A stretch of DNA of 64,000 nt from Alphaproteobacteria bacterium (GCA_965218865.1 CBDCME010000073.1:289158-353157), one strand, 5' to 3'. Counted from the first letter of the stretch, positions 10,687 to 54,866 are shown. The notes: generated by a model from the letters alone, not told the origin. Numbers and translations: made by a program.

Positions 10687-13170
10687 GCAATGGCATTTCT
10701 TTAAGGATTCGGCGTCATTTCCTTAAGGAGGCGCTCCGTACCAGGCAGCTTGCGCCTCTTGGACCGCGTATCGCTGCGTCACGCCACCGTGCGCGCCCTC
10801 TGGGTCCACTTGCCGCGCGGCTTCATTGATCGCCGTGGATATGATCGCCCCGGCCGCAGCCTGCTGCGCACCGAGAGGATCCGCTCTGCCATCCAGTCAA
10901 GGATCACGGCCAGTGCCGCTGTCCGGGCGAGCATCAGTTCCTCCAGGCTCGCCGCCATGATCGCGAGCGCGTTGCTGAAGTTCGTCGTTTGCCGTTTTCT
11001 GCCCTCCTCGCAGAGATCTTCCAGCAGCCCGTCGCCGCGATTTGACAGCAGCCGCGTCATGGCGATCAGGTTGAAGTGGGCGTAGAGTTCCTGGCGAATG
11101 CCCCTCCCGGTCCGGCCATGAAACTCGTCCACCGCGATCATGGTCTTGGAAGTCTTGTAGAGTTCCTCAATGCCCCATCTCCCGTGATACAGGCTGGAGA
11201 GGTCGTCCCGGGTGTAGCGGTCCCGATCGACCAGCGTGGTGGCGAGGGTGTATTCATCTTGCCCCGCCTTGTACTTGACCAGCCGCAGTTCCACCGGGTC
11301 GAGAGGTTTCCCGGGAAACGCGGCACGGAGGTCACACAACGCGGTGTTCTTCGGGACGGCCCGGACGAGGGCGTCGTCCTGGCCGCCGTCGATGAAGCCG
11401 GTGAAGGCGGCCGCGCTGTTGCGCTTGAGCCGGAACACCGGGTGCAGGCCGCGCGAGACCATGGCGTGCAGAAGCACGAACGAGAAGTAGCCGCGGTCGA
11501 GGACCACGACATCGCCCGGCGACAGGGCATAGAGATGGGCGAGCGCTGCGGTCCGCTCGTCGGCATTGGCCGACAGGGAGAAGTCGACCGGCGTCTTCGT
11601 GTCGAGGCGGTACAGGCAGGACACCAGCCCCTGCGGATAGTGGGTGTTGGCGTTGGGGAGCGGGTAGCCGGCCTCGACCAGCGGGCGGGGCAGGTTCATC
11701 TTGGTTCCGTCGATGGCGAAGGTACGGTGGTCCTTCCATCGGCCGCCGTCTCCGCCGTGACGGAGGATTTCCCGGTGCAGGTCAAGGAACAGGTCCTCGT
11801 GCACCCGGGCCCGGGCCTTGCAGATCGACGAGGCGGCCACCGGCTGGCGCTGCGGCAGTGCGATCCCCAGCTTCCGGCACTGGTCCCACAACTCCGCGAT
11901 CACGGTGGCGTAGCCCTTGCCGCCCCTGGACAGGACCAAGCGGAACACGAAGAGCATGACGATCAGGCTGTTCAGGACCCGTCGCCGCCGCATCCACTTC
12001 CGATCATGCGCTGCGGCCAGCTCGCCGGCCGCATCGATGATCTTCATCCACATCGCGACGAACGGATCGTCACACACCGGGCGCGGGGGCTTCGGCCGCT
12101 TCGGCGGACGGCTTTCGCCCTTCAGAACCGTGCGGAAGTCGGGATCGAGGGGCATGACGAGGATCTCCTTCGGCGGCTTGGTCCGGCTTCCGCCCCGATG
12201 ACCGGCCGTCATGCCGACCTTCTCCCAGTTGGCGGCCCGGTAACTTGCGCCGTCGTGGCGCGTCGGATCTACGAAGGTCTCGCAGAGAACCGGCCGGCAC
12301 CCGTGCCGCTGCTGCCACACGTCCGCAAGCCGGCGCACCGCCATCGCAAGGGCCCGGGAGGCGAGATTGTCAACCCGGACCCAAGGCAGGATCAGGAAGC
12401 GGCTGTTCGAGACCGCAAGATGCGGCCGCCGGTCGCGGTCCGCCCCGGTCCATCCGACCCACGCATCGCGAGCGGGCAGCGTCCTCGCCGCCGCCTCGAA
12501 AAGCAGGCAGCCGAGGCGGCGCCCTTCGCGGTCGAGAACGAACCAGCGCAGGTGCGGTCCGAACGGACGGGGACAGCCGAGCCAGTGGTGCCGGTCAACC
12601 AGTTCGTTCCACTCGGCGACCTCCGCCGGCTCCGTCGCCAAGTGCAGCGACAGCGGCTCCAGCCCGGCCAGGCCGCAGGCGATCTCCGGATCCGGCTCAG
12701 ACCGTTCGGTGTGCTCGATTGCCCGGCGCGGCCCCGATGCAGTGTTCCGCTTCGCCGGCAGGGTCAGGATCCCGCTCTCCTCCAGGCTCTCCAGCATGCG
12801 CAGGCAGGCCGCCACCCGGTAGTCGCCTTTCGGTGTGGTCCATCTCAAGTGCTCGCAGATCGTCTTGGCCAGCTCGTTGCGGCTGAGAGCCGGGAACAGG
12901 GACACGGTCTCTTGAACATCGGCGATCTGCCGCCTCGTCAGGCGGCGGCCGAAGAACGTGGTCGATGCGAGGCTCTCGATTCCAGGATCCATCGCTGCGG
13001 CTCCACCGAGCGAAACGGAAAGGTTCGAGAGTGTCATGCCATGCGGATGGTGGCGTGTCAACCGTTGCTTTGCGCTTACGGCGAGAAAGGTTGAAGGAGC
13101 CTTGAATCAACGGCTTGGGGCGACCGTGAAAATCTGACGCCGGAACTGTCGGCCAACAAAATGCCATTGC
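10687..13170 (-). mobile_element. IS4-like insertion sequence, copy 1 (12-bp TIR GCAATGGCATTT, 8-bp flank CCCGCGGA)
   Basis: 2484 bp. Terminal inverted repeats GCAATGGCATTT / AAATGCCATTGC. CCCGCGGA occurs before copy 1, between the copies, and after copy 2. Confidence 0.8.
10779..13061 (-). CDS. transposase, N-terminal DUF4338 (DruA-like) domain fused to IS4-type DDE domain
   Basis: 760 aa. C-terminal DDE_Tnp_1 motifs (FAIDGT ... VVLDRGY ... YHGRWGIEELYKTSK). The N-terminal ~350 aa carry the motifs WVGW, NSRFLILPW, ETFVD, YRAANW, which are shared with the other two DUF4338 proteins in this window. Confidence 0.8.
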   Translation of the reverse strand: MTRHHPHGMTLSNLSVSLGGAAAMDPGIESLASTTFFGRRLTRRQIADVQETVSLFPALSRNELAKTICEHLRWTTPKGDYRVAACLRMLESLEESGILTLPAKRNTASGPRRAIEHTERSEPDPEIACGLAGLEPLSLHLATEPAEVAEWNELVDRHHWLGCPRPFGPHLRWFVLDREGRRLGCLLFEAAARTLPARDAWVGWTGADRDRRPHLAVSNSRFLILPWVRVDNLASRALAMAVRRLADVWQQRHGCRPVLCETFVDPTRHDGASYRAANWEKVGMTAGHRGGSRTKPPKEILVMPLDPDFRTVLKGESRPPKRPKPPRPVCDDPFVAMWMKIIDAAGELAAAHDRKWMRRRRVLNSLIVMLFVFRLVLSRGGKGYATVIAELWDQCRKLGIALPQRQPVAASSICKARARVHEDLFLDLHREILRHGGDGGRWKDHRTFAIDGTKMNLPRPLVEAGYPLPNANTHYPQGLVSCLYRLDTKTPVDFSLSANADERTAALAHLYALSPGDVVVLDRGYFSFVLLHAMVSRGLHPVFRLKRNSAAAFTGFIDGGQDDALVRAVPKNTALCDLRAAFPGKPLDPVELRLVKYKAGQDEYTLATTLVDRDRYTRDDLSSLYHGRWGIEELYKTSKTMIAVDEFHGRTGRGIRQELYAHFNLIAMTRLLSNRGDGLLEDLCEEGRKRQTTNFSNALAIMAASLEELMLARTAALAVILDWMAERILSVRSRLRPGRSYPRRSMKPRGKWTQRARTVA

Positions 13171-13178
13171 CCCGCGGA

Positions 13179-15662
13179 GCAATGGCATTTCTTTAAGGAT
13201 TCGGCGTCATTTCCTTAAGGAGGCGCTCCGTACCAGGCAGCTTGCGCCTCTTGGACCGCGTATCGCTGCGTCACGCCACCGTGCGCGCCCTCTGGGTCCA
13301 CTTGCCGCGCGGCTTCATTGATCGCCGTGGATATGATCGCCCCGGCCGCAGCCTGCTGCGCACCGAGAGGATCCGCTCTGCCATCCAGTCAAGGATCACG
13401 GCCAGTGCCGCTGTCCGGGCGAGCATCAGTTCCTCCAGGCTCGCCGCCATGATCGCGAGCGCGTTGCTGAAGTTCGTCGTTTGCCGTTTTCTGCCCTCCT
13501 CGCAGAGATCTTCCAGCAGCCCGTCGCCGCGATTTGACAGCAGCCGCGTCATGGCGATCAGGTTGAAGTGGGCGTAGAGTTCCTGGCGAATGCCCCTCCC
13601 GGTCCGGCCATGAAACTCGTCCACCGCGATCATGGTCTTGGAAGTCTTGTAGAGTTCCTCAATGCCCCATCTCCCGTGATACAGGCTGGAGAGGTCGTCC
13701 CGGGTGTAGCGGTCCCGATCGACCAGCGTGGTGGCGAGGGTGTATTCATCTTGCCCCGCCTTGTACTTGACCAGCCGCAGTTCCACCGGGTCGAGAGGTT
13801 TCCCGGGAAACGCGGCACGGAGGTCACACAACGCGGTGTTCTTCGGGACGGCCCGGACGAGGGCGTCGTCCTGGCCGCCGTCGATGAAGCCGGTGAAGGC
13901 GGCCGCGCTGTTGCGCTTGAGCCGGAACACCGGGTGCAGGCCGCGCGAGACCATGGCGTGCAGAAGCACGAACGAGAAGTAGCCGCGGTCGAGGACCACG
14001 ACATCGCCCGGCGACAGGGCATAGAGATGGGCGAGCGCTGCGGTCCGCTCGTCGGCATTGGCCGACAGGGAGAAGTCGACCGGCGTCTTCGTGTCGAGGC
14101 GGTACAGGCAGGACACCAGCCCCTGCGGATAGTGGGTGTTGGCGTTGGGGAGCGGGTAGCCGGCCTCGACCAGCGGGCGGGGCAGGTTCATCTTGGTTCC
14201 GTCGATGGCGAAGGTACGGTGGTCCTTCCATCGGCCGCCGTCTCCGCCGTGACGGAGGATTTCCCGGTGCAGGTCAAGGAACAGGTCCTCGTGCACCCGG
14301 GCCCGGGCCTTGCAGATCGACGAGGCGGCCACCGGCTGGCGCTGCGGCAGTGCGATCCCCAGCTTCCGGCACTGGTCCCACAACTCCGCGATCACGGTGG
14401 CGTAGCCCTTGCCGCCCCTGGACAGGACCAAGCGGAACACGAAGAGCATGACGATCAGGCTGTTCAGGACCCGTCGCCGCCGCATCCACTTCCGATCATG
14501 CGCTGCGGCCAGCTCGCCGGCCGCATCGATGATCTTCATCCACATCGCGATGAACGGATCGTCACACACCGGGCGCGGGGGCTTCGGCCGCTTCGGCGGA
14601 CGGCTTTCGCCCTTCAGAACCGTGCGGAAGTCGGGATCGAGGGGCATGACGAGGATCTCCTTCGGCGGCTTGGTCCGGCTTCCGCCCCGATGACCGGCCG
14701 TCATGCCGACCTTCTCCCAGTTGGCGGCCCGGTAACTTGCGCCGTCGTGGCGCGTCGGATCTACGAAGGTCTCGCAGAGAACCGGCCGGCACCCGTGCCG
14801 CTGCTGCCACACGTCCGCAAGCCGGCGCACCGCCATCGCAAGGGCCCGGGAGGCGAGATTGTCAACCCGGACCCAAGGCAGGATCAGGAAGCGGCTGTTC
14901 GAGACCGCAAGATGCGGCCGCCGGTCGCGGTCCGCCCCGGTCCATCCGACCCACGCATCGCGAGCGGGCAGCGTCCTCGCCGCCGCCTCGAAAAGCAGGC
15001 AGCCGAGGCGGCGCCCTTCGCGGTCGAGAACGAACCAGCGCAGGTGCGGTCCGAACGGACGGGGACAGCCGAGCCAGTGGTGCCGGTCAACCAGTTCGTT
15101 CCACTCGGCGACCTCCGCCGGCTCCGTCGCCAAGTGCAGCGACAGCGGCTCCAGCCCGGCCAGGCCGCAGGCGATCTCCGGATCCGGCTCAGACCGTTCG
15201 GTGTGCTCGATTGCCCGGCGCGGCCCCGATGCAGTGTTCCGCTTCGCCGGCAGGGTCAGGATCCCGCTCTCCTCCAGGCTCTCCAGCATGCGCAGGCAGG
15301 CCGCCACCCGGTAGTCGCCTTTCGGTGTGGTCCATCTCAAGTGCTCGCAGATCGTCTTGGCCAGCTCGTTGCGGCTGAGAGCCGGGAACAGGGACACGGT
15401 CTCTTGAACATCGGCGATCTGCCGCCTCGTCAGGCGGCGGCCGAAGAACGTGGTCGATGCGAGGCTCTCGATTCCAGGATCCATCGCTGCGGCTCCACCG
15501 AGCGAAACGGAAAGGTTCGAGAGTGTCATGCCATGCGGATGGTGGCGTGTCAACCGTTGCTTTGCGCTTACGGCGAGAAAGGTTGAAGGAGCCTTGAATC
15601 AACGGCTTGGGGCGACCGTGAAAATCTGACGCCGGAACTGTCGGCCAACAAAATGCCATTGC
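13179..15662 (-). mobile_element. IS4-like insertion sequence, copy 2 (tandem direct repeat of copy 1)
   Basis: Period 2492 bp (IS plus 8-bp flank). Identical to copy 1 except single-nucleotide differences (V/I in the transposase; T/M in a spurious ORF). Confidence 0.8.
13271..15553 (-). CDS. transposase, DUF4338-IS4 DDE fusion (copy 2)
   Basis: Identical to the 10779..13061 product except one V->I substitution. Confidence 0.8.
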   Translation of the reverse strand: MTRHHPHGMTLSNLSVSLGGAAAMDPGIESLASTTFFGRRLTRRQIADVQETVSLFPALSRNELAKTICEHLRWTTPKGDYRVAACLRMLESLEESGILTLPAKRNTASGPRRAIEHTERSEPDPEIACGLAGLEPLSLHLATEPAEVAEWNELVDRHHWLGCPRPFGPHLRWFVLDREGRRLGCLLFEAAARTLPARDAWVGWTGADRDRRPHLAVSNSRFLILPWVRVDNLASRALAMAVRRLADVWQQRHGCRPVLCETFVDPTRHDGASYRAANWEKVGMTAGHRGGSRTKPPKEILVMPLDPDFRTVLKGESRPPKRPKPPRPVCDDPFIAMWMKIIDAAGELAAAHDRKWMRRRRVLNSLIVMLFVFRLVLSRGGKGYATVIAELWDQCRKLGIALPQRQPVAASSICKARARVHEDLFLDLHREILRHGGDGGRWKDHRTFAIDGTKMNLPRPLVEAGYPLPNANTHYPQGLVSCLYRLDTKTPVDFSLSANADERTAALAHLYALSPGDVVVLDRGYFSFVLLHAMVSRGLHPVFRLKRNSAAAFTGFIDGGQDDALVRAVPKNTALCDLRAAFPGKPLDPVELRLVKYKAGQDEYTLATTLVDRDRYTRDDLSSLYHGRWGIEELYKTSKTMIAVDEFHGRTGRGIRQELYAHFNLIAMTRLLSNRGDGLLEDLCEEGRKRQTTNFSNALAIMAASLEELMLARTAALAVILDWMAERILSVRSRLRPGRSYPRRSMKPRGKWTQRARTVA

Positions 15663-15784
15663 CCCGCGGAGTGGTCGGCATTCGCAACGGCCGTCGAAAT
15701 TGCGCGCGCCAGCATGGCCAATACTTGCCGAGAATCGAAAAAGGGACGCGGCCCGTGTCCCCCTTAGTTTCCGATCACGGACGT

Positions 15785-19310: not shown

Positions 19311-19328
19311 GGTAGCGGTGCGCCCATC

Positions 19329-19823: not shown

Positions 19824-19829
19824 GGTGGC

Positions 19830-23254: not shown

Positions 23255-23257
23255 TCA

Positions 23258-36460: not shown

Positions 36461-36483
36461 AATAACACTCGGACGAGCCGTGG

Positions 36484-40744: not shown

Positions 40745-40882
40745 CAGTCTGTTCGAAAACTCGCGGCCCTGGCCCTCTCCCCCTCCCGGCCACCCCTATC
40801 AGCATACTCTCGTGGGTGGCCGGGAGGGGGAGAGGGCCGGAACAGACGCAAAATATGCGCGGACGCGCATTTTCGAACAGAC
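40745..40882. repeat. MITE/REP-like palindromic element, copy 2
   Basis: Same CAGTCTGTTCGAAAA terminal repeats and GGCCACCC.../...GGGTGGCC core as copy 1. Confidence 0.65.
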
Positions 40883-40911
40883 ATTTAGGGCGCGATCACA
40901 GGGATCCGATC

Positions 40912-41631: not shown

Positions 41632-41633
41632 AT

Positions 41634-41765
41634 GTCTGTTCGAAAATGCGCGTCCGCGCATTTTTTGCGTCCGTTCCGGCCCCCACCCGGCCACCCACGA
41701 GAGGTTGCTGATAGGGGTGGCCGGGAGGGGGCGGGGGCCGGCGCCGCGAGTTTTCGAACAGACTG
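41634..41765. repeat. MITE/REP-like palindromic element, copy 3 (inverted relative to copy 2)
   Basis: Begins 3 bp after the PCD-gene stop codon. Confidence 0.65.
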
Positions 41766-41871
41766 TTAAGACATTTAGCAAGATGATTTGCCTGCCACGC
41801 TGAGCCTCACGAGGGCGTCGCATGATTTCTTGGCCACGAGTCTTCCCTCGTCCTCCGTCGGAAGTGCCGGC

Positions 41872-42357
41872 ATGCTGATCCGCCTAACGAAAATAGTCTT
41901 GGTGGTTAGCGCCGGCATTTTCGCCGCGCTCGTCGTCTTCAACAACGTGACGGACTACGAGTCGAACTACATTTTCCTTCAGCACGTTCTCAGCATGGAC
42001 ACGACATTTCCCGGAAACCGGAGGCTCTGGCGCGCGATTCACTCCCCGGAAATCCAGCGCGAAATCTTTACCCTCATCATCGCGACGGAGGCTCTCGTCG
42101 CCGGGTTGTGCCTGGCGGGCGCGACGAGACTCTGGAGGGCCAGAAACGACGCCGAGACGTTCCCCGCCGCGAAAGGATTGGCCGTCGCCGGCCTCACGCT
42201 CGGCGTGGTCTTATGGTTCGGCGGTTTCATCGCGATCGGCGGCGAATGGTTTTTGATGTGGCAATCGAAGACCTGGAACGGCACCCAACCGTCGTTCCGA
42301 ATTTCGGCGATAATGGCTTTGATCCTCATCTATCTCACGTCGAAGAACGACGGTTGA
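41872..42357 (+). CDS. DUF2165-like small integral membrane protein
   Basis: Start at MLIRLTK. Four predicted TM segments. Family assignment from memory. Confidence 0.45.
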   Translation: MLIRLTKIVLVVSAGIFAALVVFNNVTDYESNYIFLQHVLSMDTTFPGNRRLWRAIHSPEIQREIFTLIIATEALVAGLCLAGATRLWRARNDAETFPAAKGLAVAGLTLGVVLWFGGFIAIGGEWFLMWQSKTWNGTQPSFRISAIMALILIYLTSKNDG

Positions 42358-42401
42358 AACCCGGCCCGAAAACCGACTATCCGCGACGATATCGAAAGGG
42401 T

Positions 42402-43180
42402 TTAGGGTTGCAGGCACCCAGGTGACCGTTCTTCGACCAATTTTTTGAATTCCGGATCGGCAATCAGTCTTTCCGCGACGAGTTTCCCCAGTACGCTGCT
42501 GCCAAGTGGTGTCGTGTGTGTAAAATCCACGAAATGGCCGTGTTCGGAACGCAGAAACGGTCGAGGGTCGATCAATAAGGCGCCAGTTTCATTAGCTGTC
42601 TTCGTAACGACGCGACTATAGGCGGCGTAGACATCCAGAAAGCCCTGGACGGTCATATAGGGGAACAATGGTAGGCGATAACTTGCGGCGCCCAATTGCT
42701 CCCCGGGGGACTGATCCGCCCGCAACCGACGGGCATTATTGAGAAGCACGACCCGACGGCCTTCGTTTCCGACGATATCGACAAGATTGCGCAACCGGTC
42801 CCCGAACAAGGCCACGATTATTAGCGGGTTGATTTGCGGTTTTCGGTGTTCGATATGGGCGCTTCGCAGCAACTGAATAACGGCCATATTTTTCTTGATT
42901 AGTTTCCATAAAAGCAAGATTTCGGTGAACCAGCTCGGACGATATTGACGGGCTGACAATCCCTTATCGCGGGCGACTCGTCTCACGTCGAAGTTGAAGT
43001 CGCTGGCCAAGATTACGACGACATCGGGGTCGGTCTCTGCAACGTGACGCTGATAATGCAGTAGGATTTTCTCGGGTGACATCCCCGGAACGCCAGAATT
43101 TACATAGTCGAACCGGCAATCCTTCAGGTTCTCTTGAATCGTCCGCCACGCAATGAGTCGTCCGTGAAGAACCCTGATTT
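42402..43180 (-). pseudogene. SGNH/GDSL-family hydrolase, 5'-truncated by IS5-like insertion
   Basis: Block II-like NSGVPGMS is present, but no GDS block I. The ORF N-terminus runs into the IS. Confidence 0.4.
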
Positions 43181-44660
43181 CAAGCTGAAGCGGCGATTGG
43201 GTTTGCGGTGGGGTGCGAGATGTCGCTGAGGAGCGCGGCCAGGATTTGGACAAACAAACGCCTCAGCCATTTGAGGACAAGGCGGTAGTTGTAGCCGGCG
43301 CCGGCGAGGATGGCGTTGATCTTGTCGCCGTCGCGGCCTTTGAGGAAGTTGCGCCCCAGCCTGCCATCGCTCTTGAGATGTCCGATCACGGCCTCGACGG
43401 CGGAGCGCCGCCTGAGCTCCTTCTTGATCGTCGGCGTGATGCCGCGTTTCTGGCCTGATCTAAAGACGCGGTGTTTGTTGGGGTAATCGTGGCCCTGGTA
43501 TCCCTTGTCGACATAGATGCGCTCGGCCGATATCCCCGTCCAGCGTTCCATCTCTTCGATCACCTGCCTCAAGGTGTGGCCATCATAGGGATTGCCGTGG
43601 AAGGCCTTGACGTGGGCGACGAACTGGCCGCCGGGGGGGCGGGAATTGGTCGCCGCCACGGAGACCTTGCAGCCGAACTCGTACGGCTTGTGCGCCTTCC
43701 CTTTGCCGATGCATTCGACCTCGGGCGCGTGGAGCGAATAGACCTTGGGCAAGGGGTCGCGCCGCTTCTGGGTCGACACCCGCTCGGCCAGCCACAAGGG
43801 GCGGCGGAAGGTATCCCGTAGGCTCTCCTCCTGGGCCGTCTTGCGGCGGATGTCGCGGACGGTGCGCCCGAGATAGGTCTTGAGCTTGCGCAGGGCCTTG
43901 TTGGCCCGCTTGTGCTGTTTGGCATGGCGGTAGCGGCCTTGCATGATCAACGCCCTCTTGCCCAGGCGGGTATAGGACTGACGCAGGGCAATGCCGTGCT
44001 CCCGTGCCAGTCGCACCAGCCGCTCGCGGGCTCGTTGCATCAGTTTGGCGGCGGTCGGAAAGGCAATCGCCTTCTCTTGTACGGTGGTGTCCACCGTCAC
44101 CCGCTCGAGGTCCTTCTCCCGCAGCGCCCCCACCCGGTGGGCCACGGCCAGGCTCTCCTGGAATACCTTCTCCAAACCTTCCGGCCCGATCCGGTCCCGC
44201 CACCGGGTCATCGACGAGCGCTCCATGGGTAGCTCATGCTGAAAGTACTCTTCGCCGCAGAAGCACTGGAAGTATGGGTCGTAGACCCAGCGCTCGCAGA
44301 CCTCCTCATCCGAGAGATCGAACATATGCTTGAGGATGTGCAGCCCAACCATCAACCGCGTCGGGACCCCCGGCCGACCCTCCTCCGAATACAAGGCTTC
44401 ATAGGTCTCGTCGAAGAAAGTCCACGCGATCCGGCCCCCCAACACCACCAACTCGTGGCGCAGGTTGATGATGTTTTCGAACCGCGAGCGGAACAGGTCC
44501 TCTATTCCCGATGACACCTTGCGCGATGGCTTCATCACAGTTCTCCAATCCCAATCGACGGGAGCAGAGAATCACGTTCCGCAACGGAAGGGAATCCCCA
44601 AAATCAATTATTTCAAATCACAAGCTTTTCAGGCCCAAAACCCGTTTTCTTGCAAATCCG
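43150..44660 (-). mobile_element. IS5/IS1182-family insertion sequence (boundaries approximate)
   Basis: Contains a 452-aa DDE transposase. The ends were not resolved from inverted repeats. Confidence 0.5.
43180..44538 (-). CDS. IS5/IS1182-family transposase
   Basis: N-terminal InsH-like HTH (DUF772-like) plus DDE domain (YVDKGYQGHD ... AVEAVIGHLKSDGRLGRNFLKG). Confidence 0.8.
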   Translation of the reverse strand: MMKPSRKVSSGIEDLFRSRFENIINLRHELVVLGGRIAWTFFDETYEALYSEEGRPGVPTRLMVGLHILKHMFDLSDEEVCERWVYDPYFQCFCGEEYFQHELPMERSSMTRWRDRIGPEGLEKVFQESLAVAHRVGALREKDLERVTVDTTVQEKAIAFPTAAKLMQRARERLVRLAREHGIALRQSYTRLGKRALIMQGRYRHAKQHKRANKALRKLKTYLGRTVRDIRRKTAQEESLRDTFRRPLWLAERVSTQKRRDPLPKVYSLHAPEVECIGKGKAHKPYEFGCKVSVAATNSRPPGGQFVAHVKAFHGNPYDGHTLRQVIEEMERWTGISAERIYVDKGYQGHDYPNKHRVFRSGQKRGITPTIKKELRRRSAVEAVIGHLKSDGRLGRNFLKGRDGDKINAILAGAGYNYRLVLKWLRRLFVQILAALLSDISHPTANPIAASA

Positions 44661-44801
44661 ATTACTTCGCCAAACCGAAAGAGCTACCAACATCAGCCGC
44701 TTACACGTTCTTCACGGGCGACTGCCTAGGCTTCCCACACGCCCGCCGAATCCGAATTGTCGTGAGTAACACGAAAGCGCAAAGAAGGGAACCCCCAACT
44801 T

Positions 44802-46884
44802 GCAGGAACAATTTTTAGTCGCGGTTGAGGGTTCGGGATGAGTGGGATCGTGCTCGGTGCACGGGGTTCGGGGAGCCCCGAGCTTGCCTCGACGACGTCA
44901 TGGGGACTGCTCGAAGCCACCGGACGGCGTTTTCGGATTCGACAGGCACACCGGTCCGCCCGCGCCGCTCGGCGGCACGTCCCGGTCCGGGGGAGAGGCG
45001 TGCTGTCTCAGGCGATGGGCGCGGTCATGATCGCGTCGAGGGCCTCCTGCGCCCGGGCGGCATAGTGCCGGTTGGCCTCGGGCAGATAACGGAAGCGTCC
45101 GTCGCAGCGCACGATGGCGATGGCCGCGTTGGTCAAGCAGGCGAGATTTCTGGGCAGGTGACGCACGTAGGCCCGGCATCGGTCTTCGTCGTAGGTGAAG
45201 TCGCGCACGTAGTGCAGGCGGTTCTCGATATGCCAGTGGTTGCGCACCAGTTCGAGCAACTCCTCGGGTCCGGCGCGCTCTGCGCCGAGCGAGGTGAGGC
45301 TCCAGGTCACCTCGATGCTGCGCTTGCCGGTCTTGAGGATCTCGCGTTCGCGCTCGATGCGCATGGCCTGGCGTCGCCCGTGGAGGTTGGCGTAGCCGTC
45401 CCACTCGGCAGCGGAGAGGTCGACGACGGCGCAGCGTCGGCGCTCGATGCGGCCATGGCCCTTGTCGACGGTTTCGTGCCAGAGCGCATCGCTGAAGTCG
45501 ATCGCCTTGAGGTCTTCGAAGATCATCTCCTGGTTGTCCTTGACCGCGCTCATCACGTAGTCGGCGCGACGCCCGAGCAGGCAGCGCGCGGTCTCGTGCT
45601 GAGCGTGCATCGCGTCCATGGTGACGATCCGGCCTGTGAGGTCGAGGCCGCTGGAGAGTTCGCGCACGGCCGGCCGATTTCGTTGCTCTTGCGGTCGACC
45701 TCGACCTGCCCGAGGACCACGCCGGTGTCGTGCTCGACCGCCGCCACCATCATCCTGCGCCCGTCTTCGGTCTGCTTCGAGGCGCCGCGCAGATCCTTTC
45801 CGTCCATGGCGACCGGCGCGTGCGCGCTGCCATGCTGGCCGGTCCACTGGCTAATCGCGTTGTCCAGGGTCTCTGGCGGCAGGGCGGTGAGGGTCTTGTG
45901 GAAGGTGGTGATCGCGGGCGGGGTGTAGCGCTGTTTGGAAGGGCTCCAGAACGCACCCACCGCCTCGAGCTGCTCCTGGGAGAGCAGGGCGGCGAACTGG
46001 GCGAACGCGTTCACCCCCCGGTATCCGGCAAGCCGGGCGGCGACGGCGATCACCAGAATGGTGTTGAGCGCATAGCGCTTGCCCCGGGCATGGCGGTACT
46101 CGGGCACCTCACCCAGACACTCGAACAGGCTGCGCAGCCGGGGCGCGGCCATCGGCTCGGTGTGCTGCTCGGCGTTCCAGTGTGCCGGCATCCCGGTACG
46201 GCTCAGCGCCTCGGGGGCGCCGTCTGTCAGTCCGAACACGAAGACCTCCTTGGGCTGACCGTGGTGGCGCCAGCGCGCTGCCCCTCCGGGCTCACGGGCA
46301 AAGCCCCGCGTCAGCCCCAGAGAGCGCCAGTTCGACGCGCGGTAGCAGGTGCCGGCAAATCGCGAGACGTCCACGAACGTCTCCGCCAGAAGAGCCGGAT
46401 ATCCGTGCACCGCCTGGATGTCCTCAGACAGCCGCCGCAGGCTCAGCCCCAGCACACGGGAGGCCAGGTTCGGCACTCGGCCAGGCGTCAGAATGACGAA
46501 GCGCGAGTTGTTGGCGATCAGATGCAGACGCCGGAACTGCTGCTCGGCCGACCACCCGATCCAGCGATCACGCGCGCCCAGCTTGAACGCGCCGGGCTGC
46601 CAGCCGATCAGTGCGAGCCAGGTCTCGCCATGCACCGCGACATGGCGCAGGCCCTTGCCGATGACGCCGTGGAACGCCAGGTAGTGGTGCTGCTCCACCA
46701 ACCGGTCCCAGCGCCGGTGCTCCTGCGCGCCCCAGGTCGGACGCACCGTGACCGCGCGCAAATCAATGGACGAATCCGAGACCGGCAGCGTCGCCATGAC
46801 CGGCACACTGCCACACCGAGAATGAAATGGCCAGCGCCGCGATCACCTCACCCTGATCACTGGGCGGACAAAAAACTAGCCCTG
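44802..46884 (-). mobile_element. ISAs1-like insertion sequence, copy B (inverted; 9-bp TSD AAGTTGGGG; transposase frameshifted)
   Basis: 2083 bp. CCCCAACTT is found on both flanks of the + strand. It carries a 2-bp insertion relative to copy A (AAATCGGCCGGCCG versus AAATCCCGGCCG). Confidence 0.75.
45008..46806 (-). pseudogene. DUF4338-ISAs1 transposase, frameshifted copy
   Basis: Split into the 45553..46806 and 45008..45847 frames at a GGCC duplication after ...DRKSNEI. Confidence 0.75.
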
Positions 46885-47212: not shown

Positions 47213-48565
47213 ATGGCTTTGGGCGGTTCGGTCTCCTGCGCTTGGTCAAGGACAACGGCAGGAACAAGAAGACTAAGGCTAGGCGCGAGCGCGATAGCTC
47301 ACTACGAATTCCTTCTCCGATGGACCAGGGACAGGGACTGGACGGAACCGTGCGAACGGCCCGTCGTCTTCCTGCCGGTCGGCAAGACGGCCGAACTACG
47401 GGGCTTGACCGAAGGCCGGGTCCGGCAACTCGAATACGAACTCAACGAGGCCGGGCTGCTCACCTGGACCGACAGGGGCGACTACCGCAGGGGCGGAAAG
47501 CGGGATGCCGATGGGCTCATCCTCTTCGCCCACGGCGTGGACCTCTCTCCTGGGGTTGCAATGTTTCCCGAGTTGTTGAAGACCGACGCCAGGCGGCGGA
47601 AGGAAATTGAGGAACGAACCAAACTGCGGACGCACATAACAAAGCTCAAGGGCTCCGTCAGGCCCCTGCTCGACCGCGCCATCGAGGACGGACTGATAGA
47701 ACCCGGTAAGGCCGAATGGCGGAACACCACCGGAATGCTTTCCACCCGGACGGACGGCAACACGCCGCCGAAGCGGCTTAAAGAGACCGCCGCAAAATTG
47801 GACCGGCTGAGGGCAAGGCTGAGCGGGCGCGTCGAGGCAAACGCCCACTCCATAAAAGCCCTGGGCGGCGGTTGTGGAAAAGCCCGGAAAGCCTGTGGGC
47901 GGACGCGAAAAACTATCGGCGCGTCGATAGAAAACTATCGACCCACAAATACTACAAGGAATCAACAAACCGATAAATCGGTTACTAGTACCCCGTGCTG
48001 TGGACAAAGTACCGCCTGGGGCGGAAATACGGACGCGCCTTCCGGCGCGAAGTCATCCATTGAAACGATCGACGGCAGGGAAAAAGGGGGTCGCGGCCTG
48101 GAGGCCAGGAAAGAGCCTCCGAAGGGAGATCACGACGCCAACGCCGAAAGAGGGCGGGTATGGCGCCAGGCGGGAACGGTCGTGGACGGCCTGGCCGGAA
48201 ACCCGCGGGCGAAAGGCGGCGGGACAGCCAATGGTCCGGACTCGTCTCCCGGCCGCCCTCCAAAGGGCCAATTGTGGAAGCCGGACACGGGAACCCGGCA
48301 CATCAGCCTGCTTAATGCCGTGGAAATCGCCGGGATGCGGCTCCGAAACCGCATCCCGCGAACCGAACAGACGGATTGGGATGCCATCGAGGACGCCGCG
48401 GAAGACCTGTGCCCCGAACTCGGCATCAGCCTGCGGGCGTGGTGGATGGCCGTGACCATTATGGGGCGCAGGGCGGCCGCGGTCTGCGTCATGATCATCG
48501 ACCGGAAAATGTGCCCGATGCGGAAGACCCGGTGCGCTGTCCCGGCGCCTACCTGCGCGGCATGA
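47213..48565 (+). CDS. repC: RepC-like replication initiator protein
   Basis: N-terminal region VVFLPVGKTAELRGLTEGRVRQLEYELNEAGLLTWTDRGDYRRGGKRD and C-terminal LRAWWMAVTIMGRRAAAVCVMIIDRK resemble RepC N- and C-terminal domains (memory). A possible N-terminal extension lies in another frame (47128..), suggesting a frameshift. Confidence 0.5.
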   Translation: MALGGSVSCAWSRTTAGTRRLRLGASAIAHYEFLLRWTRDRDWTEPCERPVVFLPVGKTAELRGLTEGRVRQLEYELNEAGLLTWTDRGDYRRGGKRDADGLILFAHGVDLSPGVAMFPELLKTDARRRKEIEERTKLRTHITKLKGSVRPLLDRAIEDGLIEPGKAEWRNTTGMLSTRTDGNTPPKRLKETAAKLDRLRARLSGRVEANAHSIKALGGGCGKARKACGRTRKTIGASIENYRPTNTTRNQQTDKSVTSTPCCGQSTAWGGNTDAPSGAKSSIETIDGREKGGRGLEARKEPPKGDHDANAERGRVWRQAGTVVDGLAGNPRAKGGGTANGPDSSPGRPPKGQLWKPDTGTRHISLLNAVEIAGMRLRNRIPRTEQTDWDAIEDAAEDLCPELGISLRAWWMAVTIMGRRAAAVCVMIIDRKMCPMRKTRCAVPAPTCAA

Positions 48566-48694
48566 CGGCCCGCGCCCGGGACGACGAGCTTCACCTTCAC
48601 GCCAGCGTGTTCGGATGGGCGCGGAGAGCAGCAGCCTAACGCTTGCCGATGCCAAGCAGGAGACGGCAACGGCAGGGGTGCACAGGAATGAAGG

Positions 48695-50212
48695 TTATCG
48701 TTTCTCGGCCTTCCGGGCGGGCGGGGCGGTGATCTCGGGATAGACCGCGGTCATCACCCGCCACAAATCCGGCCATCCCCCGGGCTTGAGGCGGATACGG
48801 ACCGTGGACCCGTACATCCTGTCCGCTATGGGCGTCAGCGTTATTTTCTCGACCACCAGGCGCAGGGCATCCCTCAGGTATCCCGCCCGCGCCTGTTCGA
48901 GCAGATCCAGCTTCATCCGGTCAAGGGCGCGCCCGAGGGCGAGCCGAACCTCCCTTTCCGACGCCGGAAGCCCGGGAACGGTCTTTATCGCATTCTTCGC
49001 CGCCGTCAATCCCTTCTCTAGCTCCGCCATCCGCTGAAAGACACGTTCGGTCAGCAGTCCCCTTTCGGCCACCTTCAGGAGTTTCTCGATGCCACGGTTC
49101 TTCTCGGCGATCTCCTTCTCCAACGCGGCACGCCGCTCCCGGGCCCCCTCGACGAGAGCGTTCACGCCGGCGAAAAGACCGCGCTGCCGGGACAGGGATT
49201 TCCGCAGGGCCGGGAACAGCGCCCGCACCAGCTCCGGCACCCGCTTGCCGCGCGTGTTGTTGCACGTCCTGGTATAGCGCGCGTCGGCGCAGACGTACTG
49301 CCCCAGATTGGCCAGATGCGCCATGCCGCCGCAGCGCCCGCAACGAACCAGGCCGGTCAAAGGCTGGACGTTGTGGGGATTCCACTCGTGCCAGGCGCGT
49401 TTCTTCGATGCCGGACGCGGCTCCGCCTTCGGCTTGGACTCCCCGCCTGCTTGCGGCCCCCGCTGGCTCAACATGGTCCGCGCGCGATTCCACAGCCTCT
49501 CATTCACGATCCGCAGATGGGGAACCGGCGTGCGGATCCATTCCGATTCAGGATTGATCTTTGGCCGAGACCTTTTCGTCACCGGGTCGGTCACCCGCCG
49601 CGTGCGGTTGTAGACAAGGACGCCCTTGTAAATCTCGTTGCGCAGGGTGCCATCGCCGTTGGACCCCTTCCCATAGATGCTGGCGAACCGCCAAACCGCC
49701 CCGGAAGGCGAGGGGAGGCCGTCGGCGTTCAAGTCCCTGGCTATCGTCTTAATGGGCTTTCCGGCAACGAACTCCTTGAAAATCCGCCGCACCACCACCG
49801 CCTGGGCCTCGTCGATCTCCCGCAGGCCGTTAACGTTCCGGTTCTTCCCGTCGACCACCCCGCGTATCACCCGGTATCCGTAGGCGCGGCCCGAGGCGCG
49901 GCCCGAGGGCTGGCGCCCTTCCTCCGCGCGGGCGCGCTGGCCGCGCCTGATTTTGTCTTTCATGTCGTCAAGATAAATTGCGTTCATCGTCCCCTTGAAG
50001 CCGACGTGAAGCCAGGTGATCCTTCCTTCGTGGGCGGTGTGCATGCCCACCTCATAATACACCAGCCGGGCGTAGATCGCGGCGACGTCCTCCAGACTCC
50101 GGGTAACCCGGTCCAGCCCCTCGGCGACGACGACATCGAACTCCTTCCGTTCCGCGGCCTCCAGCAGCGCCTTCAGACCCTGGCGCCTGTCGGTCGCGCC
50201 GGTGAGTTCATG
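48695..50212 (-). pseudogene. large serine recombinase, C-terminal part (gene split by tandem IS66-like insertion)
   Basis: Recombinase domain, zinc ribbon (CGRCGG ... C) and coiled coil. Reading upstream to the IS junction gives the catalytic-domain sequence ELTGATDRRQGLKALLEAAERKEFDVVVAEGLDRVTRSLEDVAAIYARL. Confidence 0.7.
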
Positions 50213-50272
50213 GGTAATTGTTCGTTCAGGCCGTGGAATCAGCGCGGGCGTTTCTATCCGCCCCGGCGGATT

Positions 50273-51154
50273 TTAGCGATTGAGGCTGCGTTTCCAGTCT
50301 CGTCGCAGGGGCCGGAGCCAGACATCCTTTTTCGGCTTGTCAAACTGCCTGTCCCGGTCGTAGCGCCCGCGCCCCTGGGTGGCGCCGACATGGATCCAGC
50401 CCGATGCCCTGTAGACCGCGCCGGTATATCGCGGGGTCTCGACGAATGTCTCGATGAGCACGGGCGTGGTGTTGTAGCGCTCGGTCCAGTCGTCGGGCAG
50501 GCGCCGGCGGATGATGGCGAGGATGTGCGAGCCCAGGTTGGGGATCTTGATCCAGGGCAGGATCAGGAACCTCGGGTTGTCGACCACGAAGGGAAGGTTC
50601 TTCTCGCGCAGTTGCCGTGTCCATCCGATGAAGGTGTCGCGCGTGGCAAGCTTCCACGCGGCGGTGGAGAAGCCGAGCATGGCGAGTGGCCAGCCGTTTC
50701 GGTCATGGACGGCATAGCGCATCTGGGCGCCGACCAGGGTCTTGTATCCGAGATAGTGGTAGCGGGCGACGAACTCGTTCCAGAGCTTCCCTTCCCGGGT
50801 GCCGCGCACGACGGGGTGCAGGTCGAGCGGACGGACCTCGTCGAGGGTCGTCGGGGCCGGGAACAGCGGCGGTTCGGTGTCCGGCCCGAAGACGATCGGC
50901 CCGGGCCGGTTCTGCCGTCCCCGCGGCGCCGGCAGGGCGATCAGGCCGTCCCTGTGCATGGCCAGCATAGCGACCCTGGCCATCATGTCCTTGAGGCCGC
51001 CGTCGGGCTTGAACCAGCCGATGCGCCGGCAGAACTCCTTCGACAGCATATGGCGGTTCAACGGCGGCGGCCCGGCGATCAGCGCGCGCAGCAGCGCCAT
51101 TTCCCCGGCGGTGAAATCGCGGCCGTAATAACGGCACTCGATCTTGCCGGTCAT
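50273..51154 (-). CDS. standalone DUF4338 (DruA-like) protein, translationally coupled to tnpC
   Basis: Start MTGKIECRYYG overlaps the tnpC stop as ATGA. Motifs FIGW, DNPRFLILPW, ETFVE, YRASGW. Confidence 0.7.
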   Translation of the reverse strand: MTGKIECRYYGRDFTAGEMALLRALIAGPPPLNRHMLSKEFCRRIGWFKPDGGLKDMMARVAMLAMHRDGLIALPAPRGRQNRPGPIVFGPDTEPPLFPAPTTLDEVRPLDLHPVVRGTREGKLWNEFVARYHYLGYKTLVGAQMRYAVHDRNGWPLAMLGFSTAAWKLATRDTFIGWTRQLREKNLPFVVDNPRFLILPWIKIPNLGSHILAIIRRRLPDDWTERYNTTPVLIETFVETPRYTGAVYRASGWIHVGATQGRGRYDRDRQFDKPKKDVWLRPLRRDWKRSLNR

Positions 51155-53820
51155 CCCGGCGCCATGAGCTCGCGCCTGCGGTCCTCGCTCATCGACCATG
51201 GCAGCCACGGCGACATGTCATCCGGCGGTTTGCGGCCGTTCTTCGCGCAGGCTTCGAGCCACGCTTCCAGCCAGCGCAGGACGTCGATGCCGTTCATCGA
51301 GAGCGTGCCCACCACCGAGTACATGATCGCCGTGAACCTGGCGCCGTCCTCGCTGTTCGAACCGAAGCTTAATCGTCGTCCGATGACTGGCCCCCGGAGC
51401 GCGCGCTCGGCCTTGTTGTTGTCCATCGGAACCTGTGGCTTGTCGACGAAGACGCACAACCCCTCGCGGTGGTTGAGAAGCGAGCGCAGCGGCTTGGCCC
51501 TGCGCGCCCTCTCCGACAGGCCGGCCAACTCCGCTTCGGCGTCCGCGAACAGGCGGGCGACCGCCGCTTCCAACTCGCCCTGCGCCGCGTCGAACGCCGG
51601 TGTCCGGCGTTCGAGACCGGGGTCGTAATGCTCCAGCCGCGCCTCGTTCAGCCGGTAGATCTCCGCGATCCGCTCGATCCATCCCTGGCACCAGCCCGTC
51701 AGTCTCACCTGGCCGGCCGCGCACTCGATAAAATCGCGGCGCATATGGGACCAGCAGAATGCAAGGGTCACCTTGCCCTCGCGAAGGCGAGCGAGTCGCT
51801 TGTAGGCGCTATAGCGGTCGCAGACGATGACCGTGTCGAGGAGGCCTTCGGCGAACAGCTCGAGCGCCGCCTCGGCGCTGCGCGAGGGGTCGATATGGAA
51901 AGAGACCGCGTCATTGCTGACCGAGGTCCACAGCCAGGCCCGGCTCGACCGGTCTTCCCCGCGAAGCTCCTGGACGCGCCAACCGGTCTCGTCGGCGTGG
52001 CGCAGCGCCGCCTTGTTCTGGTGCGCGAGGATCGCCTTGGCGACCGGCTCGAACAGCGGCACGAAACGCTTCAGGCTGTCGGCCAGCGTCCCCGGTGAGA
52101 CCCCCAGGCCCTGGCTGGAGAACCACGCGGCAACCCGGTGCAGGGGGCGCAAGCAGGCACAGTGCTCGAACAGGAAGCGTGCCCAGAAGCTGGTCCCGTA
52201 GAGCGTCCTGGGGAACAGCCGCAGCACCGGGGGCGACGACACTTCCATGGGCGACGACGCGCACTCGCAGGTCCGGCGCCAGCGCGGACGGCGGATCACA
52301 CGCTTGTGGGCCTTGACCTCGATCTCGACGAGGGTGGATTCCTCGGCGCCGTTCGGCGCATAGGGCTGCCCGCACCGTCCGCAGACGCACGCATCCGGCG
52401 GCGGGTTGTGCTCTTCGGTGCGCTCCTTGAGCCCGGGCCGCTGGGTGCGGCCATGGCCGGGCGCGCCGCGCTGCTGGCCGCGCTTGCGTTCCGAGCCCGG
52501 CTTGTCCTGCTGTTCGCTCTTGCGGCCGTAGAGCGCCCTCGACAGCACAGCTCCGGTCGCGCGAAGCCTCTCAAGCTGGACTTCCAGCGTCTCGATCCGG
52601 TTCCGCGACGTCTTCGCGCCCTTGCGCAGCCGGGCGTTCTCCCGGGACAGCGACTTGATCGTGGCCTTCTGGCGCCGCGACCTTCGCAGAGCCCTGCGGA
52701 GATCGGCGTCTGCAACGGACAGCGACTTCGACAACGTCTTCCTGACCGCTCGAAGCCCGGCAAGCTCGGACTCGAGTGCCTTCCTGATCGCGCGAAGCTT
52801 GGCAGGCTGAACCTCCAGCGCCGCTTTCCGGGTCTCCAACTTCCGCATGGTCCTGCGCAGACGGGCGTTGTCCTTGCGCAGCGCCTCGATCGTCGTCTTC
52901 TGGCGCCGCGCTCGCCGCAACGCCGCGCGCAATTGAGCGGCCTCGTCGGACGGCAGCTTCGACAGCGTCGCCCCGGCCGCCCGGAGCTTGACGAGCCGGG
53001 CCTTCAACTTCTCCTGCCCGGCCTTGAACACCTCCAGGGCATGGCGCAGCCAGAAGACCTCGTCGGACAGCGATCGGGCCCGGGCCTCGCTGTCGCCCAG
53101 TATCCTCACCTCCCGATGGAGCCGAAGGGACTCGCTGGACAGCTTCCTGGCGGCCTCCCTGATGCTCTCCGTGCTCTCCTTCTCCCGGTCGAGGCGCTTG
53201 TTCAACTGGAGGATCTGCTTGTCCCGCCGGACCGCCTCGTTGTTGAGCCGGGTGATCTCCTTGCGTAGCGTCCTGATGGTGTCCTTCTGGTCCGGGGATC
53301 GCTCCAGGGCGGTGAGCCGCCGACGGGTCTCCGCGGGCCGCGGGCCGATCGCGCCCTCTCGGGCCTCCGGCGCGACCAGGGCCTTGCGCAGCCGGGCGTT
53401 CTCCTTGCGCAGCGCCTCGGTCGTGCTGCTCTCGTTCGACCCGATGCCGGCTTCGGAGAGGAGCGTCTCCAGGCGCGCCACTTCGGCCTGCAAGGAAGGC
53501 ACGTCCCTTGCCGCGCGGCGAGCTTCCTTCGTCTCCTCGACGGCCTCGCTCAACCTGCGCCGGCAGGCCTTGAACCGCGACTTCCACGAGCCGGCATCGC
53601 TACGCGAGGCCACTTCCGCCCAGCGTAGCTCTTCCGCGCGCGCTTCGGCCGCGTCCGCGCGGGCGCGCTCCCGCTCATACAGCGAGCGCAAGTCGCGCGG
53701 CGCGCGCTCCGGTAAGGACACCGGGCACGACCGGACCCCGCCATTACCCTCGACCAGCGTCAGGTCGGTGCCAAAATCCTCGTCCAGAACCGCCATGCGC
53801 TCGACGATAGCGCACGGCAA
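51151..53820 (-). CDS. tnpC: IS66-family transposase TnpC with extended N-terminal coiled coil
   Basis: 889 aa. Zinc-finger CxxC (ACVCGRCGQP) and the IS66 DDE core (HADETGWRV ... CDRYSAYK ... CWSHMRRDF). The N-terminal ~450 aa form a coiled coil with repeated (T/A)I(K/E)xLxxENARLR motifs. Confidence 0.8.
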   Translation of the reverse strand: MPCAIVERMAVLDEDFGTDLTLVEGNGGVRSCPVSLPERAPRDLRSLYERERARADAAEARAEELRWAEVASRSDAGSWKSRFKACRRRLSEAVEETKEARRAARDVPSLQAEVARLETLLSEAGIGSNESSTTEALRKENARLRKALVAPEAREGAIGPRPAETRRRLTALERSPDQKDTIRTLRKEITRLNNEAVRRDKQILQLNKRLDREKESTESIREAARKLSSESLRLHREVRILGDSEARARSLSDEVFWLRHALEVFKAGQEKLKARLVKLRAAGATLSKLPSDEAAQLRAALRRARRQKTTIEALRKDNARLRRTMRKLETRKAALEVQPAKLRAIRKALESELAGLRAVRKTLSKSLSVADADLRRALRRSRRQKATIKSLSRENARLRKGAKTSRNRIETLEVQLERLRATGAVLSRALYGRKSEQQDKPGSERKRGQQRGAPGHGRTQRPGLKERTEEHNPPPDACVCGRCGQPYAPNGAEESTLVEIEVKAHKRVIRRPRWRRTCECASSPMEVSSPPVLRLFPRTLYGTSFWARFLFEHCACLRPLHRVAAWFSSQGLGVSPGTLADSLKRFVPLFEPVAKAILAHQNKAALRHADETGWRVQELRGEDRSSRAWLWTSVSNDAVSFHIDPSRSAEAALELFAEGLLDTVIVCDRYSAYKRLARLREGKVTLAFCWSHMRRDFIECAAGQVRLTGWCQGWIERIAEIYRLNEARLEHYDPGLERRTPAFDAAQGELEAAVARLFADAEAELAGLSERARRAKPLRSLLNHREGLCVFVDKPQVPMDNNKAERALRGPVIGRRLSFGSNSEDGARFTAIMYSVVGTLSMNGIDVLRWLEAWLEACAKNGRKPPDDMSPWLPWSMSEDRRRELMAPG

Positions 53821-53984
53821 ATTCCGTTACCAGCAGAAAGACAGCACCTCGTGGGCTTCGCCTCAACTTGGGAAATGCGCTTGACGGCACCCATTCCACG
53901 GCCTGAACGAACACTTACCGCGCGTGTAATTGTTCGTTCAGGCCGTGGAATCAGCGCGGGCGTTTCTATCCGCCCCGGCGGATT

Positions 53985-54866
53985 TTAGCGATTGAGGCTG
54001 CGTTTCCAGTCTCGTCGCAGGGGCCGGAGCCAGACATCCTTTTTCGGCTTGTCAAACTGCCTGTCCCGGTCGTAGCGCCCGCGCCCCTGGGTGGCGCCGA
54101 CATGGATCCAGCCCGATGCCCTGTAGACCGCGCCGGTATATCGCGGGGTCTCGACGAATGTCTCGATGAGCACGGGCGTGGTGTTGTAGCGCTCGGTCCA
54201 GTCGTCGGGCAGGCGCCGGCGGATGATGGCGAGGATGTGCGAGCCCAGGTTGGGGATCTTGATCCAGGGCAGGATCAGGAACCTCGGGTTGTCGACCACG
54301 AAGGGAAGGTTCTTCTCGCGCAGTTGCCGTGTCCATCCGATGAAGGTGTCGCGCGTGGCAAGCTTCCACGCGGCGGTGGAGAAGCCGAGCATGGCGAGTG
54401 GCCAGCCGTTTCGGTCATGGACGGCATAGCGCATCTGGGCGCCGACCAGGGTCTTGTATCCGAGATAGTGGTAGCGGGCGACGAACTCGTTCCAGAGCTT
54501 CCCTTCCCGGGTGCCGCGCACGACGGGGTGCAGGTCGAGCGGACGGACCTCGTCGAGGGTCGTCGGGGCCGGGAACAGCGGCGGTTCGGTGTCCGGCCCG
54601 AAGACGATCGGCCCGGGCCGGTTCTGCCGTCCCCGCGGCGCCGGCAGGGCGATCAGGCCGTCCCTGTGCATGGCCAGCATAGCGACCCTGGCCATCATGT
54701 CCTTGAGGCCGCCGTCGGGCTTGAACCAGCCGATGCGCCGGCAGAACTCCTTCGACAGCATATGGCGGTTCAACGGCGGCGGCCCGGCGATCAGCGCGCG
54801 CAGCAGCGCCATTTCCCCGGCGGTGAAATCGCGGCCGTAATAACGGCACTCGATCTTGCCGGTCAT
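53985..54866 (-). CDS. standalone DUF4338 (DruA-like) protein (copy 2)
   Basis: Identical to the 50273..51154 product. Confidence 0.7.
   Translation of the reverse strand: MTGKIECRYYGRDFTAGEMALLRALIAGPPPLNRHMLSKEFCRRIGWFKPDGGLKDMMARVAMLAMHRDGLIALPAPRGRQNRPGPIVFGPDTEPPLFPAPTTLDEVRPLDLHPVVRGTREGKLWNEFVARYHYLGYKTLVGAQMRYAVHDRNGWPLAMLGFSTAAWKLATRDTFIGWTRQLREKNLPFVVDNPRFLILPWIKIPNLGSHILAIIRRRLPDDWTERYNTTPVLIETFVETPRYTGAVYRASGWIHVGATQGRGRYDRDRQFDKPKKDVWLRPLRRDWKRSLNR

Follow-up and report, generated by a model that had tools for sequence, protein, structure and literature searches.

DUF4338, the protein domain now catalogued in Pfam as DruA (PF14236), is an integral and selected part of three insertion sequences (IS) that were active recently and lie in a 64,000-nt stretch of DNA from an Alphaproteobacteria bacterium (GCA_965218865.1 CBDCME010000073.1:289158-353157). 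This stretch is referred to here as the window, and all positions are counted from its first nucleotide. The domain is fused in frame to the transposase of an IS4-type and of an ISAs1-type element, and is encoded by a separate, coupled gene in an IS66-type element; target-site duplications and near-identical copies indicate that all three elements moved recently. The reading favored here, put forward tentatively and by analogy with the Mom protein of phage Mu, is that the domain is a Mom-like transferase, associated with transposases, whose substrate is nucleic acid.

The first-pass annotation of the window had described three open reading frames (ORFs) with a common block of sequence and had assigned that block to DUF4338/DruA. 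All of its coordinates are correct, the three ORFs translate as it described, and a Pfam search for PF14236 confirms the assignment: the domain is found in ORF 10779-13061 (minus strand; E=1.5e-26, 93.7 bits) together with DDE_Tnp_1, in ORF 38383-40179 (plus strand; E=7.5e-22, 78.3 bits) together with DDE_Tnp_1_assoc and DDE_Tnp_1, and in ORF 50273-51208 (minus strand; E=2.7e-38, 132.2 bits), all three proteins exceeding the gathering threshold of 27 bits. Just upstream of the last of these, ORF 51151-53820 (minus strand) encodes DDE_Tnp_IS66 (E=1.1e-56). The motifs listed for the block are genuine, being conserved columns in an alignment of the three domains; identity is 42% between the IS66-linked and IS4-linked domains, 31% between the IS66-linked and ISAs1-linked domains and 35% between the IS4-linked and ISAs1-linked ones. 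A hidden Markov model (HMM) built from the three domains and run in six frames detects exactly six copies in the window, two of each type, and no further ones. Pfam and NCBIfam bear out the claimed architectures (fused to an IS4-type transposase, fused to an ISAs1-type transposase, and separate beside an IS66-type transposase). The transposases had been called members of three unrelated families; by NCBIfam they do belong to distinct IS families, but "unrelated" is too strong because IS4 and ISAs1 have the DDE_Tnp_1 catalytic domain in common, and all three are DDE enzymes.

The IS4-type element (10688-13169, minus strand) spans 2482 bp and terminates in CAATGGCATTT...AAATGCCATTG, its terminal inverted repeats being of 11 bp; a 10-bp target duplication, CCCCGCGGAG, is found on either side, at 10678-10687 and 13170-13179. 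Its ORF of 760 codons (10779-13061, minus strand) encodes a winged-helix-like N-terminus, the DUF4338 GNAT domain (amino acids 151-288 by Pfam; DNA 12162-12674) and an IS4-type DDE transposase (amino acids 357-672), which scores 147.9 bits against the NCBIfam model transpos_IS4_1 (cut-off 115). A second copy with a single base difference (13180-15661, minus strand) lies in tandem to the first and carries a twin ORF (13271-15553, minus strand; GNAT domain at 14654-15166); a third CCCCGCGGAG follows at 15662-15671. The whole (10678-15671) is thus a direct tandem in the order repeat-IS-repeat-IS-repeat, consistent either with a further copy having inserted at the duplicated target, in which case site preference would be strong, or with unequal crossover; it may also be an assembly artefact. 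A Glu/Leu/Phe/Val-dehydrogenase-like ORF at 9540-10662 covers just positions 91-235 of the 241-position Pfam model, and this gene, which ends near the IS4-type insertion, may be disrupted.

The ISAs1-type element is present in two inverted copies, the first (38305-40384, plus strand) about 2080 bp long and flanked by the 10-bp target duplication CTTTCCGACA (38295-38304 and 40385-40394), the second (44803-46884, minus strand) flanked by its own 10-bp duplication, CAAGTTGGGG. Since each copy has its own duplication, they represent two separate insertions. The ORF of the first copy (38383-40179, plus strand; 598 codons) begins with the DUF4338 GNAT domain (DNA 38389-38943), placed at the very N-terminus and without a winged-helix part, and continues into DDE_Tnp_1_assoc and the ISAs1 transposase (NCBIfam 206.5 bits, cut-off 70). 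The second copy (GNAT part at 46246-46800) differs from the first solely by a 2-bp insertion at 45674-45675, which puts the transposase out of frame; this is the copy earlier described as decayed (45008-46806). The inverted copies (38305-46884) bracket 4.4 kb in which several small genes accompany an IS5-like transposase gene (43180-44538); the segment has the look of a composite transposon, yet it has not moved as one unit because each copy has its own target duplication. Within it, inverted repeats at 40745-40887 and 41629-41765 (arms of 86 and 60 nt, 92% complementary), whose arms contain shorter G+C-rich hairpins, flank an ORF at 40816-41631. Relatives of the ISAs1 fusion all run on into DDE_Tnp_1_assoc, and many database entries end at about 348 amino acids. 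Programmed frameshifting was considered for these relatives and rejected, as the frame changes at varying positions between sequences; the truncated relatives are decayed copies or products of long-read indel errors.

The IS66-type element is likewise present twice, at 50214-53918 and 53926-57630 (both minus strand), as copies identical over 3705 bp and separated by a 7-bp spacer, CGCGCGT (53919-53925). Each copy has 26-bp inverted repeats beginning GTAA, which read GTAA(T/G)TGTTCGTTCAGGCCGTGGAAT, and the pair as a whole is bounded by the 8-bp repeat GTTCATGG (50206-50213 and 57631-57638). The transposase gene (51151-53796, minus strand; twin at 54863-57508) encodes 881 amino acids from its ATG and scores 271.6 bits against the NCBIfam model (cut-off 180); an identical 881-residue product is called at another locus (L003). 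Its N-terminal half, of about 440 residues, is a coiled coil built of repeated ...RRxRRQK.TI..L..ENARLRK... units, and transposase products at related loci range from 584 to 881 amino acids. The stand-alone DUF4338 gene (50273-51154, minus strand; twin at 53985-54866) encodes 293 amino acids, comprising a winged-helix-like part (about residues 1-70) and the GNAT domain (about residues 105-293); it lies inside the inverted repeats, its stop codon 59 bp from the element terminus. The ATGA overlap reported previously is present at 51154-51151, where the ATG of the DUF4338 gene overlaps the transposase stop codon, and it is kept in 62 of 63 related loci with an intact gene. IS66-family elements have accessory genes tnpA and tnpB, members of ISBst12 type being without them. 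The window element resembles the family in a transposase above the NCBIfam cut-off, 8-bp target duplications and GTAA-initial inverted repeats, but it differs in the coiled-coil N-terminal extension, in the absence of tnpA and tnpB, for which 2646 bp of transposase gene and 882 bp of DUF4338 gene leave no room in the 3705 bp, and in the downstream, coupled winged-helix and GNAT gene. With the in-frame fusions, this position within the inverted repeats upholds the earlier suggestion that the domain is an integral part of the elements and not a loose passenger.

The IS66-type unit also occurs singly, with 8-bp duplications at independent sites, at two other loci (L003 and L005). Tandem arrays are seen in three relatives (L020, L071 and L077) with periods of about 3420-3570 bp, L071 having three copies. 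The abutting ends recall, by analogy, the circle or dimer junctions of copy-out elements; the tandem copies are possibly long-read assembly artefacts. A near-identity DNA search with the unit against 72,556 plasmids gave no match and a plasmid protein search returned two records only, both from Candidatus Thiodictyon; IS66-type elements of this kind are therefore rare on sequenced plasmids.

The combination of DUF4338 with transposases extends well beyond the window. A search of 1.84 billion representative proteins with a cut-off of E<=1e-3 recovers 14,715 members of the family, and 3,285 of these reach E<=1e-30. Close relatives of the stand-alone type number in the thousands. Partner domains were surveyed in the best 150 representatives, of which the 59 that are at least 400 amino acids long were scanned with Pfam. 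The partners are almost only transposase domains: DDE_Tnp_1 in 26, DDE_Tnp_1_assoc in 10, Tnp_DNA_bind in 7 (with a Tn5 dimerisation domain in 4), DDE_Tnp_IS66 in 4, DDE_Tnp_ISAZ013 in 2 and DDE_3 in 1. Clustering of the non-GNAT parts agrees with this picture. At least six partner families are represented (IS4, ISAs1, Tn5-like, IS66, ISAzo13 and IS630), in fused and split forms, and the proposal of repeated combination with different transposase families thus holds on a wider sample. In the IS4, ISAs1, Tn5-like and ISAzo13 fusions the domain is N-terminal; four to six representatives in which IS66 and DUF4338 appear fused may be frameshift artefacts at the ATGA overlap and are not firm fusions.

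Split forms are varied. Close relatives of the IS66-linked type were examined at 79 loci, drawn from long-read metagenome-assembled genomes of Alpha- and Gammaproteobacteria, Bryobacterales and others; in nearly all of them an IS66-family transposase gene ends exactly at the DUF4338 start, and 63 of the 79 have an intact 293-codon DUF4338 gene. The neighbors of DUF4338 genes at related loci are transposases. Elsewhere a DUF4338 gene lies upstream of and overlaps an ISAs1-like transposase gene, precedes an IS66 transposase gene within a unit that has inserted into secA, or immediately follows a different IS66 transposase gene. In a neighbor-joining tree of the GNAT parts, which is rough and has no bootstrap, clades mostly track the partner family; three split forms fall within or beside the IS4 clade, pointing to further exchanges. 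Two other arrangements were observed. A 316-residue DUF4338 protein (P0281; locus L111 and two other places) has the same neighbors in three genomes, namely two small ORFs, DUF6788 and DinB_2, with no transposase adjoining, and may be a domesticated copy or part of a different kind of system. On the Candidatus Thiodictyon plasmid pTs485 (L106), a DUF4338 gene lies inside an insertion that splits a DUF2235 gene and also holds integrase, IS91-family transposase and IS4-family transposase genes; this may be another pairing or nested insertions only.

Conservation among the IS66-type loci indicates that the domain is under selection. Identity to the window copy is 82-94% for the GNAT domain, 55-87% for the catalytic half of the transposase and 30-87% for its coiled-coil half. 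The GNAT domain is more conserved than the transposase catalytic half in 62 of 62 related loci, a comparison biased toward the domain by the choice of loci for domain similarity, so that the contrast is exaggerated while its direction is clear. A part with universal substrates would fit this higher conservation better than one that tracks element-specific DNA ends.

Structural and profile comparisons make it very probable that DUF4338 has a GNAT fold akin to that of Mom. The AlphaFold model of the 293-residue protein (predicted local distance difference test score, pLDDT, 90.4) consists of a small N-terminal hairpin and three helices, winged-helix-like in arrangement, followed by a GNAT fold; the model of residues 1-216 of the ISAs1 fusion has a pLDDT of 92.6. 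Mom (PF25680; PDB 8bv8) is the closest among solved structures by structure and profile similarity and the top match in both searches, with leads of 2.4 and 3.0 Z units. When 13 Mom homologues from phages were combined into a profile, hhalign aligned it to the DUF4338 profile at 94.5% probability (E=8e-8, 164 columns); the 13-sequence profile was needed, the single Mu Mom sequence giving 2.9% probability only. A sequence search of the PDB with the DUF4338 family profile gave no meaningful match, and DUF4338 and Mom are 13-15% identical in sequence. From these comparisons DUF4338 and Mom are most aptly treated as separate sister families: they have in common the GNAT fold and aligned catalytic-site residues, but the R-D-x-W-I-G-W segment is particular to DUF4338, which is often also equipped with a winged helix at the N-terminus or with a fused transposase. 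Mom also differs in serving phage anti-restriction, and is not known to act in transposition.

The residue-level agreement is centered on the Mom active site. The residues reported to be required for Mom activity are H48/Y49, R101, S114, D139 and Y149 (GenBank numbering; add 10 for that of the 2026 Mom paper). H48/Y49, S114, D139 and Y149 align to H133/Y134, S209, D/E239 and Y248 of the stand-alone protein, and among 150 representatives clustered at 50% identity these positions are conserved as H in 146 of 148, S in 145 of 148, D/E in 129 of 146 and Y in 136 of 147. R101 is reported to be conserved across Mom homologues and not across GNATs; it probably corresponds to the near-invariant arginine of the DUF4338 N-x-R-F motif (147 of 148 representatives), which has the same position in strand beta4 and a spacing to the serine of 14 residues, against 13 in Mom. 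Conservation of this kind makes catalytic activity probable. The canonical GNAT loop that binds the pyrophosphate of coenzyme A (CoA), Q/R-x-x-G-x-G/A, lies between beta4 and alpha3. This glycine-rich loop is absent from DUF4338, whose consensus reads (V/I)-x-N-L-(A/G)-S and resembles the R-N-x-E-S of Mom. The first-pass annotation had proposed a role in binding DNA, target or host factors; a GNAT fold most like that of Mom and near-invariant catalytic-site residues make an enzymatic role likelier than one of binding alone.

Mom uses Gly-tRNA(Gly) as the donor of a glycine that it attaches to adenine N6 in double-stranded DNA; rearrangement of the product gives carbamoylmethyl-adenine. This chemistry was described in 2026 as a new GNAT category. 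By analogy, the DUF4338 domain would be an active acyl- or aminoacyl-transferase, brought to DNA by the transposase to which it is fused or, where the protein has a winged-helix domain of its own (the stand-alone and IS4-type forms), by that domain. It would covalently modify a base, adenine if the analogy with Mom extends so far, using an activated donor such as an aminoacyl-tRNA, and the modified DNA would lie at or near the element, in the donor site or in the target. The resulting mark could regulate transposition (its timing, immunity, or the distinction of donor from new copy) or could protect the DNA against nucleases. That the acceptor is nucleic acid is a tentative assignment, and aminoacyl-tRNA as the donor is a more doubtful one. 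Control by base marks has a possible mechanistic parallel in Dam methylation, which controls IS10, IS50 and IS903 through a base mark at the ends that couples transposition to replication; there, however, the mark is a methyl group written by a host enzyme and not by the element.

Several points weigh against a Mom-like transferase. The Pfam Mom model (PF25680), against which Mu Mom itself scores 253 bits, matches no window protein at E<=0.01. The alignment from hhalign leaves R101 unaligned with the conserved arginine, the equivalence coming from secondary-structure register only. An essential helix-turn-helix-like insertion of Mom (about residues 175-209) is a gap in DUF4338 in the hhalign alignment and a short hairpin in the models, although the N-terminal winged-helix domain or the fused transposase may substitute for it. 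The authors of the Mom work point out that all GNATs are homologous and that the substrate is not readable from the fold; no biochemical study of any DUF4338 protein was found among open-access papers and preprints; and the choice of loci described above inflates the conservation contrast.

Were the domain instead a protein acetyltransferase, with the transposase or a DNA-bending or nucleoid protein of the host as its substrate, it could tune transpososome assembly. This is unlikely, given that Mom leads both searches, by 2.4 and 3.0 Z units, that the conserved residues are the Mom set, including the arginine particular to Mom homologues, and that the glycine-rich CoA-pyrophosphate loop is replaced by the Mom-resembling (V/I)-x-N-L-(A/G)-S. 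Less probable again is a toxin-like effector, which like the GNAT toxins would have tRNA or aminoacyl-tRNA as its target and would confer an addiction- or defense-like property in place of a role in transposition; that Mom binds charged tRNA and is toxic when over-expressed speaks for such an effector. The binding role of the first-pass annotation survives as a non-catalytic adaptor for DNA, target or host factor, with the GNAT fold as a mere scaffold. It draws on the N-terminal placement of the domain in the IS4, ISAs1, Tn5-like and ISAzo13 fusions, since N-terminal regions of transposases usually bind element ends. This adaptor is improbable because the Mom-aligned catalytic positions are kept in 88-99% of the 150 divergent representatives, fusions included, because the ISAs1 fusion retains its own DDE_Tnp_1_assoc DNA-binding region, and because the protein of the IS66-type lineage is much more conserved than its transposase, which is unexpected of a part co-evolving with element-specific ends.

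Least probable, to the point of being barely credible, is a passenger or remnant of a Druantia defense system that does nothing for the insertion sequences carrying it. The name of the Pfam family, and a weak match of the PADLOC DruA model (PDLC00002) to the stand-alone protein (E=5.7e-6, 23.7 bits), are in its favor, but the same model matches neither fusion protein, the domain is fused in frame to at least five transposase families, and the stand-alone gene lies inside inverted repeats with a conserved ATGA overlap. There are no candidates for druB-E in the 64-kb window, where the remaining genes examined have housekeeping functions or belong to mobile elements. The longest ORF, that of the IS66 transposase, encodes 889 amino acids, so the window holds no intact large DruE-type helicase gene; the DruE gene is presumably larger than any window ORF. 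The locus is not Druantia. Its link to DruA, the signature protein of type I Druantia, is the common domain family alone (PF14236; E 1e-22 to 1e-38), a likeness that tells nothing about mechanism, and the partners of the window domain are transposases. The connection to anti-phage defense proposed in the first-pass annotation therefore does not stand in the form given: it came solely from the common domain family, and the window has no intact gene of DruE size.

The surroundings of the elements change along the window. The first 37 kb consist of ordinary alphaproteobacterial housekeeping genes, including those for adenylosuccinate lyase, HflK, Mrp, a chemoreceptor, YebC, RuvB, TolB, TilS, FtsH, FolP, GlmM and AmtB; beyond 37 kb lie insertion sequences, an IS5-like transposase, a RepC-like replication protein and a recombinase. 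The RepC-like initiator gene (47213-48565) and the recombinase gene, with Recombinase and zinc-ribbon domains (48695-50062), precede the IS66-type pair and suggest an integrated plasmid remnant or a secondary replicon. Among phages, Mom-like genes adjoin a gene with a ParB-like nuclease domain in Microbacterium phage Appa (L097) and at two further phage loci (L099 and L102); in phage Appa the Mom-like gene also adjoins a tRNA-Gly gene, a neighbor that fits the use of Gly-tRNA by Mom. Structure matches in BFVD include several large phage "homing endonuclease" or endonuclease-like proteins (about 500-700 amino acids) from Campylobacter phages and other myoviruses, which contain a region like the domain.

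By their transposases and ends the window elements are otherwise ordinary members of IS4, ISAs1 and IS66, and the domain architectures are already visible in domain databases. An earlier paper remarked that DUF4338 is a GNAT, and a 2025 preprint noted that some cyanophage proteins resemble DruA in structure; no account of the association of DUF4338 with transposases, or of a relationship between DruA and Mom, was found in open-access papers and preprints. What is new is the accessory module itself, a Mom-like enzyme domain repeatedly paired with DDE transposases.

The boldest form of the proposal would have many insertion sequences, of at least six DDE families, write a bulky, covalent, aminoacyl-derived mark on adenine, with charged tRNA as donor, at or around the element, and DruA carry out the same chemistry in type I Druantia. 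It is speculative and rather doubtful in all its parts taken together. Type II Druantia has a methylase, DruM, and DruA would fill the corresponding place in type I. If the proposal is true, the mark would give the elements a self-encoded epigenetic control or shield, and these would be the first insertion sequences in which an enzyme that modifies nucleic acid routinely accompanies the transposase, by fusion or by coupling. This would add a new layer to transposon self-control or to the evasion of host nucleases, and Mom-type chemistry would extend from phages to cellular mobile elements. The comparison with Mom thereby provides a testable biochemical hypothesis for a family of about 14,700 representatives and for DruA, the protein by which type I Druantia is recognized.

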